Shown here piece by piece: positions 26,534 to 30,175 of a stretch of DNA of 64,000 nucleotides. Positions within the stretch are counted from its first letter, which is position 1. Every line of letters begins with the position of its first letter. The translations under genes and the position numbers were made by a program. The DNA is from Dictyostelium discoideum (taxonomy: Eukaryota): positions 448,001 through 512,000 of the forward strand of contig CM000151.3 in the NCBI GenBank assembly GCA_000004695.1, given 5' to 3'. The notes under the pieces are model-generated. The model was not told the DNA's origin, made no database searches, and saw only the letters and a program-made list of their open reading frames with translations.

Positions 26534-29500
26534 TTAATATTGCACTGAAGATCTAACTAAATTATTAGTGTTGTTGATATTAAAATTACCATTGGTATTG
26601 TTTAACATGTTAAATTGTTGCATATTAATTTGATTATCGCTTAATTGATTTATAGGTTCTATATTTTGTTGTGGTGGCTGTTGAATTTGTTGTTGCATTT
26701 GTTGTTGTTGTTGTTGTTGTTGTTGTTGTTGTTGTTGTTGTTGTAAAAGTTGCTGTTGTAAAAGTTGTTGTTGTAATTGTTGTAAATGTTGTTGTTGCTG
26801 TAGTTGCTGAGGATTTTGTTGTTGAGGATTTTGTTGTTGAGGATTTTGTTGTTGTTGTTGTTGTTGTTGAGAATATTGCTGTTGTTGAATATACAATTGT
26901 TGTTGATTATTTATATTATTATTTATATTATTATTTGTATTATTATTATTATTATTATTATTATTATTATTATTATTATTATTATTATTATTATTATTAT
27001 TATTATTATTATTATTATTATTATTATTATTATTATTATTATTATTATTATTATTATTATTTTGGAAAGGGTTTGATACGCCTATAATAGACTTAGTTGG
27101 TTGGATATTATTATTATTATTATTATTTACAAAGCTGTTATTATTAATAAAGTTATTATTAATATTATTGTTTACACTATTTCCATCATTGGTTGGTGAT
27201 GGAACGAATGGTATTGCTTGTTGTTGTTGTGGTGGTGGTTGTTGTGGTTGTAGTTGGTTTATATCATTTTTAACCTCGCTAATCACAATGTTCGTACCAT
27301 TAGCATTATTACAATTTATATTATTATTATTATTATTGTTATTATTATTATTATTATTTTGATTTTGATTTTGATTTTGAACTTGATTAACCAATGATAA
27401 TTTATTATCCAATTGATATAAAGGAAAAGTTGGTTGATTCTTTCTATTCGTACAAAGATTAAGTTCATCAGGACTTAATAGGGTTAGATTAAAGAGGATA
27501 TTTACAATGTGATCTAAAAAGGATTCATAGGTTGAGATTGGAACTACTTTTGCACCAAACAATTTAGAGATAACCAATTGTTCACCACAATTATGTTGAA
27601 AGAATAAGTTATTATCTTCAACTATATATAAACTAGTGGCTGAGCCTGTACATTTTAATATTGGTTTTCCAGTGGTTGCATTGATCAATCCAGATGGTGA
27701 TAAAATCGGTAATGATAATGAAAATGGTGCTAAACCAATACCTTGATAAAATAAATTTCTCTTTATATGTGGTCCTTCACATCTCATCCTTAAAAGTTCA
27801 TATACTAAAACAATTTGTTGTCTTGTCTCTTTAAGAACTTTACCCCAAATTGGATGATTAAGTAATTCTAATTTCTTATTATAATCTATTGGTTGATTTG
27901 GTTGAACTTGATTTGGTTGTTGTCTTTGTTGTTGTTGTTGTTGTTGTTGTTGTTGTTGTTGTTGTTGTTGTTGTTGTTGTAGTTGTTGTTGTTGTTGTTG
28001 TTGTTGTTGTTGTTGTTGTTGTTGTTGTTGTTGTTGTTGTTGTTGTTGTTGTTGTAGTTGTTGTAGTTGTAGAATTTGTTGGCTCTGTTGATTTTGTAAG
28101 ATTTGGTTCGTTTGGTGTTGTTGTTGTTGTTGTTGTTGTGTTATTTGGTTAGGTTGTTGTGGTAATTGTTGATTTGGTGGGTTTTGATTTAGTTGTTGAG
28201 GTTGTTGTTGATTTTGTTGTTGTTGTTGGGCTTGTTGTTGGGATTGCTGGGCCTGTGGTTGCTGTTGGGCTTGTTGTTGTTGTTGTTGTTGTTGTTGTTG
28301 TTGTTGTTGTTGTTGTTGTTGTTGTTGTTGTTGTTGTTGTTGTTGTTGTTGTTGTTGTTGTTGTTGTTGTTGTTGTTGTTGTTGTTGTTGTTGTTGTTGG
28401 GCTTGTTGTTGTTGTTGTTGTTGGGCTTGTTGTTGTTGTTGTTGTTGTTGTTGTTGTTGGGCTTGTTGGGCTTGTTGTAGTTGTTGTTGTTGTTGTTGTT
28501 GTTGTTGTTGTTGTAGTTGTTGTTGTAGTAGTAGTTGTTGGGCTTGTTGTTGTTGTTGTTGTTGTTGTTGTTGTTGTTGTTGTTGTTGTTGTGGTAATTG
28601 TTGATTTTGTTGTATTTGTTGATTTTGTTGCATTTGTTGCATTTGTTGAATGATAATAGCCTGTTGTTGCTGTATTTGTGCTTGTTGTTGAAGTAAACCA
28701 TTTATTTGTTGTTGGGTTTGTGGGTTTTGTGGTTGTTGTTGTAACATATGAATTTGATGTTGAAGTTGTCCAAAATGTTGTTGGTAAATTTTTAATTGTT
28801 GTTGTTGTTGTTGAGCTTGTTGTTGAGCTTGTTGTTGAGCTTGTTGTTGTTGTTGTAGTTGAGCTTGTTGTTGTTGTTGTAGTTGAGCTTGTTGTTGTTG
28901 TTGTAGTTGGGCTTGTTGTTGTTGTAGTTGAGCTTGTTGTTGTTGTTGTTGTTGTAATAGTAATTGCATTGGTTGTTGAGGAATTTGTTGTTGTTGTTGT
29001 TGTCGTTGTTGTTGTTGCATTCGTAATTGTTCGTTTAATTCTTCAGACACTTTATTATTGTTATTATTATTATTATTATTATTATTATTATTATTATTAT
29101 TATTATTATTATTATTATTATGGTTTGGACTTATATTAGGTGAAAGGATAGTTTGTTGAATATTTTGAGGCGATTGTAAATTTGAATTTATATTTATATT
29201 TGAATTTATACCAACAGGTGTTGGAGAATGAGAGTTTGAACCATTGGTTTGGTTAGTTGGTGGTGTTGGAATGGCAGAATTAGAACTAGAATTAACATAG
29301 GACACACCAATTTGTGGTGATCCAAACTGATCAATTGAACCACTTTTATTATTATTATTAGTATTATTAGTATTTATATTGTTTACATTATTGGTATTAC
29401 TATTATTTAATTGTGGATCTCCAATATTGATGGATGGATTTGAAGCATTATTAAAATTTGCACCAAGCAAAACATTATTATTATTATTGCTTGTATTTAG

Positions 29501-30175
29501 AGTACTATTGTTACCACTACTATTTAAACTGTTATTTAAACTCGATTGTTGCTGAGCTTGTTGTTGTTGTAATAGTAGTTGTTGATGTTGTTGTTGTTGT
29601 AAAAGTTGTTGTTGGGCTTGTTGTTGAAGTAATTGTTGTTGTTGGACCAAAGAATAATGTATATTATTGGTTCCAAATGGTTTATTATTATTATTATTAT
29701 TATTATTATTATTATTATTATTATTATTATTATTATTATTAACATTATTTACAGGTTGTGGTTGTGGTTGTGGTTGTGATTGTAGTTGTAGTTGTGATTG
29801 AACTTGTTGAGCTTGTGGGTGTAAAAAATTTTGTTGTTGAGCTTGGTGTTGTTGTTGTTTAATTAAATTTTGTTGTTGTTGTTGTAATTGTAGTAATTGT
29901 TGTTGTTGTTGTAAAATTTGTTGTTGTTGTAATAGTTGTTGTTGTTGCTGTTGTTGTTGTTGTTGTTGTAAATGTAAAGGTTGTTGTGATTGTGGTTGTG
30001 GTTGTTGTGGTAGTATGGGTTGTTGTTGTGGTTGTGATGGTGGTGTTTGTTGTGGAGGTGATTGAATACCTTGTGGTCTATATATATTTTGTTGATAATT
30101 ATTAAAGAAACCATTTTGTAATGGTTGTTGTGTTTGTGGTTGTGAAACAAGCTTAGTTTGTATGGAAGCCATCAC
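26534..30175 (-). CDS. very large Q/N-rich low-complexity protein (1213 aa) with one globular domain of unknown family near residues 860-1040
   Basis: Single ORF. Poly-Q (CAA)n tracts exceed 40 residues and poly-N (AAT)n tracts are also present. The non-repetitive core is PIDYNKKLELLNHPIWGKVLKETRQQIVLVYELLRMRCEGPHIKRNLFYQGIGLAPF…ILKCTGSATSLYIVEDNNLFFQHNCGEQLVISKLFGAKVVPISTYESFLDHIV. Confidence 0.7.
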   Translation of the reverse strand: MMASIQTKLVSQPQTQQPLQNGFFNNYQQNIYRPQGIQSPPQQTPPSQPQQQPILPQQPQPQSQQPLHLQQQQQQQQQQQLLQQQQILQQQQQLLQLQQQQQNLIKQQQHQAQQQNFLHPQAQQVQSQLQLQSQPQPQPQPVNNVNNNNNNNNNNNNNNNNNNNKPFGTNNIHYSLVQQQQLLQQQAQQQLLQQQQHQQLLLQQQQAQQQSSLNNSLNSSGNNSTLNTSNNNNNVLLGANFNNASNPSINIGDPQLNNSNTNNVNNINTNNTNNNNKSGSIDQFGSPQIGVSYVNSSSNSAIPTPPTNQTNGSNSHSPTPVGINSNININSNLQSPQNIQQTILSPNISPNHNNNNNNNNNNNNNNNNNNNNNNKVSEELNEQLRMQQQQRQQQQQQIPQQPMQLLLQQQQQQQAQLQQQQAQLQQQQQAQLQQQQQAQLQQQQQAQQQAQQQAQQQQQQLKIYQQHFGQLQHQIHMLQQQPQNPQTQQQINGLLQQQAQIQQQQAIIIQQMQQMQQNQQIQQNQQLPQQQQQQQQQQQQQQQQAQQLLLQQQLQQQQQQQQQQQLQQAQQAQQQQQQQQQQQAQQQQQQQAQQQQQQQQQQQQQQQQQQQQQQQQQQQQQQQQQQQQQQQQQQQAQQQPQAQQSQQQAQQQQQNQQQPQQLNQNPPNQQLPQQPNQITQQQQQQQHQTNQILQNQQSQQILQLQQLQQQQQQQQQQQQQQQQQQQQQQQQLQQQQQQQQQQQQQQQQQQRQQPNQVQPNQPIDYNKKLELLNHPIWGKVLKETRQQIVLVYELLRMRCEGPHIKRNLFYQGIGLAPFSLSLPILSPSGLINATTGKPILKCTGSATSLYIVEDNNLFFQHNCGEQLVISKLFGAKVVPISTYESFLDHIVNILFNLTLLSPDELNLCTNRKNQPTFPLYQLDNKLSLVNQVQNQNQNQNNNNNNNNNNNNNINCNNANGTNIVISEVKNDINQLQPQQPPPQQQQAIPFVPSPTNDGNSVNNNINNNFINNNSFVNNNNNNNIQPTKSIIGVSNPFQNNNNNNNNNNNNNNNNNNNNNNNNNNNNNNNNNNNNNNNNNTNNNINNNINNQQQLYIQQQQYSQQQQQQQQNPQQQNPQQQNPQQLQQQQHLQQLQQQLLQQQLLQQQQQQQQQQQQQQQMQQQIQQPPQQNIEPINQLSDNQINMQQFNMLNNTNGNFNINNTNNLVRSSVQY
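28262..28440. repeat. (CAA)n / (TTG)n coding trinucleotide repeat (poly-Q) inside the Q-rich gene; one of many in this window
   Basis: Near-perfect gttgttgtt… run on the plus strand, which is CAA codons on the minus strand. Confidence 0.85.

Follow-up and report, generated by a model that had tools for sequence, protein, structure and literature searches.

In a window of 64,000 nucleotides from the genome of Dictyostelium discoideum (contig CM000151.3, positions 448,001 to 512,000), an open reading frame (ORF) on the minus strand (26534..30175 in the window) encodes a protein rich in Gln and Asn (Q/N-rich). As judged by comparison with its relatives, the conserved core of this protein consists of two elements, a Ser/Thr-Pro-rich motif (S/T-P motif) and a globular domain. 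The domain represents a family which, as far as sequence similarity reaches, is detectable only in dictyostelids, namely in D. discoideum, D. purpureum and Synstelium polycarpum. On balance we consider it probable that the protein is a non-enzymatic regulatory scaffold or adaptor in which the conserved S/T-P motif and the dictyostelid domain are combined with expanded Q/N tracts.

The ORF is a genuine single-exon gene of D. discoideum. Its complete coding sequence (26534..30172, minus strand) starts with an ATG at 30172 and ends with a TAA at 26534-26536, giving a product of 1212 residues. The initial annotation had listed 1213 residues; the first codon of the listed ORF is a GTG, and the true ATG is the next codon. 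The ATG is preceded by an A/T-only leader, which is typical, and an A-rich tract follows the stop codon. In another, independent assembly of D. discoideum (GCA_054883475.1), a single-exon gene with an identical 1212-residue product has been called, for which no Pfam hit is recorded. The frame described in the initial annotation is thus present on the minus strand, and so are both peptides quoted from it. In a genome with 22% GC, stop codons should occur at intervals of about 11 codons, and 170 non-repetitive codons would remain open by chance with a probability of ~6e-8. An ORF of this length is therefore not explained by chance, and we regard the gene as real. It is an ordinary gene for D. 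discoideum. Across the window, the GC content varies between 18% and 31%, and triplet repeats are abundant.

An entropy scan of the protein revealed only two sizeable high-complexity segments, residues 281-319 and residues 760-930. The latter is a globular block of ~165-170 residues with a conserved core at residues 763-924 (DYNKKLELLNHPIWGK...FPLYQLDNK; 27401..27886, minus strand), which was delimited by its high complexity and by its homologues. The initial annotation had noticed this block as what looked like a folded domain of ~180 residues at 27450-27990 and as the single non-repetitive element of the protein. The block is indeed a genuine, conserved and probably folded domain, as indicated by its high complexity, the number of invariant alignment columns and the substitution pattern described below. 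However, it is shorter than had been stated, the range was off by ~70-100 nt, and the second conserved high-complexity segment (residues 281-319) had been missed. Residues 850-1050, which had been proposed as the query for further searches, drop the N-terminal half of the domain and add poly-N.

Homologues of the domain are few. When 1.84 billion cluster representatives were searched exhaustively with phmmer (E ≤ 1e-3), only two matches were obtained: the D. purpureum hypothetical protein DICPUDRAFT_75884 (F0ZBY6, XP_003284937.1; E 9.5e-52) with 57% identity (55-57% over ~160 residues across comparisons), and a EukProt model from Synstelium polycarpum (EP01133_P003729, P0002; E 1.3e-10) with 39% identity. 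The same two relatives, and no others, were obtained by a profile search of 5.8 billion proteins. A word-indexed search with the single domain sequence against 5.8e9 proteins gave no match at all, the protein itself included, and a JGI metagenome scan for domain homologues yielded 366 pattern matches, none of which was confirmed. The three-way alignment contains 37 invariant columns, and among these columns in the three sequences there is no conserved set of Cys or His residues. In the NCBI taxonomy and in the current classification, Synstelium is placed directly under Dictyostelia without a family (PMC11857562). As the domain occurs in Synstelium, outside the genus, it is older than the genus Dictyostelium.

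The comparison between D. discoideum and D. purpureum shows that the domain is under purifying selection. The rate of non-synonymous substitution (dN) is 0.36 and that of synonymous substitution (dS), which is near saturation, is 1.56, resulting in a ratio of ~0.23. Identity at the three codon positions is 0.65, 0.80 and 0.45, respectively, so that the second position is the most and the third position the least conserved. By similarity, by orthology and by purifying selection, the domain is a member of a dictyostelid orphan domain family of the DICPUDRAFT_75884 type.

These data bear directly on the reading that the block has no function and is a chance non-repetitive stretch in a repeat-driven frame or an annotation artefact. 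Triplet repeats do keep several frames open in this region, where antisense and alternative ORFs of 90-170 residues are found, and AlphaFold2 (AF2) could not fold the block. Yet the block has retained its identity to D. purpureum and to Synstelium, in contrast to the unconserved repeats on either side, the dN/dS ratio is low, and the REV3 neighbourhood of the gene is conserved. Together with the low probability of an open frame and the independent gene call, this makes such a reading extremely improbable; it is effectively refuted by the conservation data. The block is neither of low complexity nor unconserved among dictyostelids.

The second conserved element is the S/T-P-rich motif (residues 280-317, IDQFGSPQIGVSYVNSSSNSAIPTPPTNQTNGSNSHSP; 29222..29335, minus strand). 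It was detected by tblastn in the D. purpureum locus on GL870974.1 (~74.4-76.9 kb), which was analysed in reversed orientation and is referred to as L001; positions 9525-9632 of L001 match the segment with 63% identity (E 1e-6). The motif is the core of an S/T-P cluster which extends to residue 352 (nt 29117), and seven of the 12 [ST]P sites of the protein are located within residues 285-348, partly inside the conserved motif. A pattern of the form FGSP...NSA(V/I)PTPP...NQ.N..SP is also found in the Synstelium protein, directly upstream of the domain. There, the S/T-P motif is followed by the domain in the same order as in the window protein, although the model is truncated and ends inside the domain.

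Weak conservation was also observed at both termini of the protein. The N-terminal segment (residues 1-38, MASIQ...QNGFFNNYQQ...; 30059..30172, minus strand) resembles the 5' ORF of the D. purpureum locus (L001 9052-9213, MASAQQ...QNSFLNNFQQ) with a local alignment score of 51, which is weak evidence. The C-terminal tail (residues 1170-1212, ...LSDNQINMQQFNMLNN...; 26537..26665, minus strand) could be aligned locally to the 3' ORF (L001 10902-11534, ...LDNQSNMAMQQFNNLNN...), with part of the score derived from poly-Q. The end of this ORF (L001 11298-11534, ...DNQSNMAMQQFNNLNN) matches the C-terminus of the window protein.

The distance between the two core elements differs strongly among the three species. 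From the PTPP sequence to an invariant Trp of the domain there are 79 residues in Synstelium, ~160 in D. purpureum, where the gap is filled by (NIN)n repeats, and 474 in D. discoideum, where it is filled by poly-Q. The gap in Synstelium is free of poly-Q. This variation indicates that poly-Q is not part of the conserved core. The long poly-Q and poly-N tracts are species-specific microsatellite expansions, such as are found routinely in the D. discoideum genome. Among them, the central poly-Q is a 1.1-kb expansion in the D. discoideum lineage, situated between motif and domain. It corresponds to a Q-rich linker of approximately residues 386-752 (27916..29017, minus strand), encoded by a (CAA)n-type microsatellite for which Tandem Repeats Finder (TRF) reports a period of 3 and 361 copies.

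The D. purpureum gene is considered to be the orthologue for two reasons. First, the domain gene (L001 10001-10507) adjoins REV3 (L001 912-7986), and REV3 is the neighbour in both species. Second, the N-terminal, S/T-P and C-terminal motifs are found in the ORFs flanking the domain. Relative to REV3, the gene is oriented head-to-head in D. discoideum but in tandem in D. purpureum, which implies a small local inversion. The D. purpureum orthologue has been annotated as four small genes (53, 69, 168 and 78 residues; L001 9052-11534), as its repeat DNA is interrupted by two assembly gaps (runs of N) and by a frame break. The locus is evidently one gene of ~2.5 kb, and DICPUDRAFT_75884, annotated as a stand-alone protein of 168 residues, is evidently only its domain fragment. 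In comparison with the window gene, the locus has far less poly-Q and carries (NIN)n and (QNIQQ)n repeats instead.

Outside the core, the protein is dominated by repeats. Gln and Asn make up 56.6% of its residues (456 Q, 230 N), and homopolymer runs of at least five residues cover 27% of its length. More than 80% had previously been described as poly-Q or poly-N. Taken literally this does not hold, but it is acceptable if Q/N-rich low-complexity sequence is meant: 80-82% of the protein lies in windows (20-30 residues) of which Q+N make up at least 50%, and a SEG-like entropy filter marks 77% as low-complexity. The longest Q run comprises 43 residues (592-634). The longest N run, with 41 residues (1038-1078; 26939..27061, minus strand), is encoded by an (AAT)n array, which TRF reports at 26906-27061 with 92% matches. 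Codon usage is strongly biased, with 442 CAA versus 14 CAG and 206 AAT versus 24 AAC codons. The (CAA)n and (AAT)n arrays also account for the strongly positive GC skew of the window at 26-32 kb. A number of antisense and alternative-frame ORFs of 60-170 residues, rich in Val, Leu, Tyr and Ile, are located within 26671-29742, those at 28159-28653 and 28189-28701 being examples. These ORFs are not genes but have arisen as by-products of the two types of array.

With its long low-complexity regions dominated by Q and N, the protein belongs to the Q/N-rich, prion-like compositional class of D. discoideum, with which it shares long runs (43 Q and 41 N) derived from CAA and AAT microsatellites. This class is defined by composition and is not a homology family, so that membership is uninformative with respect to the conserved domain. 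About 24% of the D. discoideum proteome is predicted to be prion-like and Q/N-rich (PMC11537047), and the genome encodes nearly 10,000 homopolymer tracts (PMC11537047; PMC9234386).

We attempted to assign the domain to a family. A Pfam-A search by hmmscan, with the domain and with the full protein, gave no family at E ≤ 1, and the two homologues produced only sub-threshold noise at E ≤ 10. In Pfam there was no match to the Mediator subunits Med15/25/27/29/30, to Spt20_SEP, LIM_bind, NOT2_3_5 or KIX, and NCBIfam gave no meaningful match. A phmmer comparison with all PDB chains resulted in chance hits only (dethiobiotin synthetase, E ~0.5), and the three-sequence profile had no match among all PDB chains at E ≤ 10. 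The statement of the initial annotation that no family could be assigned by eye is thereby borne out for Pfam, NCBIfam, PDB and exhaustive HMMER searches. Structure prediction by AF2 was of low confidence, with a mean predicted local distance difference test (pLDDT) value of 46.7 for the single sequence and of 38.4 for the three-sequence alignment. In both runs, which were performed on a 174-residue construct, helices were predicted at ~8-43, several strands at ~61-122, and helices again at ~123-156; the agreement between them is gross only. Fold searches with these low-confidence models returned noise. Tentatively, the models suggest an alpha+beta fold.

Spt20, a subunit of SAGA with a SEP domain (PF12090), was considered as a candidate on the basis of motifs compared by eye. 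The likeness is superficial, both proteins being Q-rich with one small alpha/beta core. By eye, LYIVEDNNLFF, LVISK and YESFLDHIV of the domain resemble FHIYENNYKI, LILTK and LKEFLEYV of yeast Spt20, and FYQG resembles FYEG, but these resemblances imply two mutually inconsistent registers. In hhalign comparisons, the probability was 0.4% against yeast Spt20 (six columns) and 0.07% against a three-species Spt20 profile (four columns), and the candidate was rejected. The Spt20 templates from yeast and human were checked against PDB entries 6t9i and 7ktr, while that from Komagataella was taken from 6tb4 (chains 6t9i_B, 6tb4_F and 7ktr_C). Five further architectural analogues (MED25-ACID, MED27, NOT-box, RWD/UBC and SEUSS/Ldb) were dropped, as the profile had no PDB match at E ≤ 10 and Pfam revealed none of them.

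These searches are relevant to the possibility that the protein is a nuclear transcription co-regulator of the Mediator-tail, SAGA or SEUSS/Ldb type; the initial annotation had held a transcription co-regulator, of no stated type, to be probable. The Q-rich segments would then serve in activation or condensate formation, and the domain would anchor the protein in a co-activator complex. Such an arrangement would not be unusual, as co-regulators typically have Q-rich flanks around one small conserved domain. Transcription factors of D. discoideum, like certain other regulators, contain poly-Q and poly-N more often than expected (PMC9234386). However, Q/N-richness of the kind found in about a quarter of the proteome adds little to the prior expectation. 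Q-richness is so commonplace in D. discoideum that it makes a regulatory role of some kind only slightly more probable, and it does not favour transcription over other roles. In addition, Pfam gave no match to Mediator, SAGA, Ldb or other co-regulator families even at thresholds of E ≤ 1-10, the PDB profile search was empty although human and yeast Mediator and SAGA subunits were included, and the comparison with Spt20 failed. A regular-expression scan of the protein did not detect a nuclear localization signal (NLS), that is no K[KR]x[KR], bipartite or PY motif; non-classical import is beyond such a scan. A co-regulator is therefore a possibility which we view with considerable doubt. What had been called probable was derived from Q-richness alone and lacks specific support, since neither a DNA-binding nor a co-regulator domain nor an NLS was found.

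The charge distribution of the domain allows two further readings to be weighed. The domain carries 29 of the 52 charged residues of the protein, with 16 Lys/Arg and 13 Asp/Glu and thus a net charge of only ~+3. Three invariant Arg residues are located in its N-terminal helical part. These conserved basic residues in the N-terminal helices might indicate a sequence-specific transcription factor with the 165-residue block as a new, dictyostelid-specific DNA-binding domain, and lineage-restricted DNA-binding domains in Q-rich Dictyostelium proteins are known, CudA being an example. However, the domain is near neutral, neither an NLS nor structural support was found, and we detected no paralogue family, whereas DNA-binding domains usually form families. 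This explanation is accordingly considered very unlikely.

The three invariant Arg residues would also be compatible with a cytoplasmic component of RNA regulation or of ribonucleoprotein (RNP) granules of the P-body or stress-granule type, in which the Q/N tracts condense and the domain binds an RNA-decay or translation factor. The extreme prion-like composition, the failure to find an NLS, and the enrichment of Q/N tracts in RNA-binding proteins of D. discoideum (PMC9234386) fit such a role. It is nevertheless unlikely in our view, as Pfam indicated no RRM, KH, LSm, NOT-box or other RNA-related domain, and the positive net charge of the domain is so small.

A scaffold or adaptor, the reading which we prefer, takes up the same observations in a different way. 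The near-neutral charge, the lack of conserved Cys/His residues and the lack of a recognizable catalytic motif are more in line with a binding module than with an enzyme or with a DNA-binding domain of the classical type. The orphan domain would then be a specific docking module through which the protein makes its interactions. The clustering of S/T-P sites suggests regulation by a proline-directed kinase, and the cluster, with S285, T303, S316, T318, S334, S344 and S348 as candidate sites, may be a segment controlled by phosphorylation of this type. As spacers, the Q/N tracts would be flexible and multivalent and might associate with themselves. The co-regulator, the RNP-granule component and the DNA-binding factor are narrower variants of this general reading.

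Several points weigh against this assignment. Only three homologues are available, one of which is a truncated gene model, so that the family boundaries are uncertain, and the absence of a catalytic motif was judged on these three sequences only. Both structure predictions are of low confidence, and the domain might fold only on binding. The clustering of S/T-P sites occurs in a segment rich in Ser, Asn and Pro and may be compositional. The absence of an NLS does not help a nuclear variant of the proposal.

A more far-reaching proposal is that the 165-residue block is a new fold or family which arose in the Dictyostelia and which, together with the S/T-P phospho-motif, makes up the core of a regulator specific to this lineage, which might act, for instance, in social or multicellular development. 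The hundreds of poly-Q residues inserted between the two modules in D. discoideum would then tune their coupling. We regard this as rather improbable at present. If the domain should indeed turn out to be a new fold with a part in dictyostelid development, the interest for workers in this field would be moderate, and a lineage-specific regulator of this kind would be a natural test case for the tolerated or exploited expansion of a repeat between two functional modules.

On present evidence, the finding matters little, as about a quarter of the D. discoideum proteins are Q/N-rich and many of them have lineage-restricted domains of unassigned function. The conserved core (residues 280-317 and 763-924) is now delimited and has been kept beyond the genus, which makes it a clean target for knockout, tagging and structural work. 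For D. purpureum, the analysis identifies a mis-annotation, one orthologue having been entered as four small genes. The growth of the linker from 79 to 474 residues via (CAA)n across three species is a neat example for the study of repeat tolerance in Dictyostelium.

Its neighbours place the gene on chromosome 2 of D. discoideum AX4, and it is probably DDB_G0271606. This identifier is inferred: it is adjacent to DDB_G0271608, which is rev3 (PMC2730050), and the gene adjoins rev3. DDB_G0271610 is the alternative identifier. In Swiss-Prot, DDB_G0271606 is a 'Putative uncharacterized protein' whose name has been attached to Q-rich insect and plant proteins, which fits the extreme Q-richness of the window protein. 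The name has been transferred to Q-rich proteins from silkworm, blow-fly and citrus transcriptomes (PMC4672304, PMC7414772, PMC9478336). This naming is almost certainly an artefact of BLAST due to poly-Q composition and does not reflect homology. In the literature on DDB_G0271606, DDB_G0271604, DDB_G0271610, DDB_G0295819 and DICPUDRAFT_75884, we did not find a functional study.

On the plus strand, the neighbouring gene is REV3 (DDB_G0271608, 32277-40472), encoding the catalytic subunit of DNA polymerase zeta, with the Pfam domains REV3_N, DNA_pol_B and zf-C4pol. It is distributed over two ORFs (32277-32810 and 32937-40472) separated by ~126 nt, which is consistent with one short intron. The first ORF encodes the N-terminal domains, the second the family-B polymerase domain and the C4 zinc finger. 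On the other side, DDB_G0295819 (24505-25932, minus strand; 475 residues) was identified by exact look-up of the ORF at 24508-25932. Its product, in which hydrophobic N- and C-termini lie on either side of an S/T-rich stalk, looks secreted or glycosylphosphatidylinositol-anchored; its UniRef name is 'right handed beta helix domain-containing', and there was no Pfam match at E ≤ 1e-3.

Among the other genes of the window, the ORF at 3805-6753 corresponds to UniProt Q55B03 by exact look-up. The RNA polymerase III subunit RPC5 is encoded at 21774-23672 on the minus strand (Pfam RPC5, E 3e-113). The translation of this ORF has no exact match in the protein collection, and the annotated model probably has another start or an intron. 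A protein of 1693 residues with a myotubularin-like phosphatase domain at its C-terminus (E 2e-131) is encoded at 40534-45615 on the minus strand; its long N-terminal region is largely unassigned except for a weak FERM_f0 match. Two adjacent type I polyketide synthases are encoded on the plus strand. The first (51956-58804, 2282 residues) is of the highly reducing type with the domain order KS-AT-MT-ER-KR-ACP. Its ORF lacks the N-terminus of the KS domain; this part is probably encoded further upstream, in ORF 51181-51894, with an intron in between. At 59457 the second polyketide synthase begins, with an ORF at 59457-60131.

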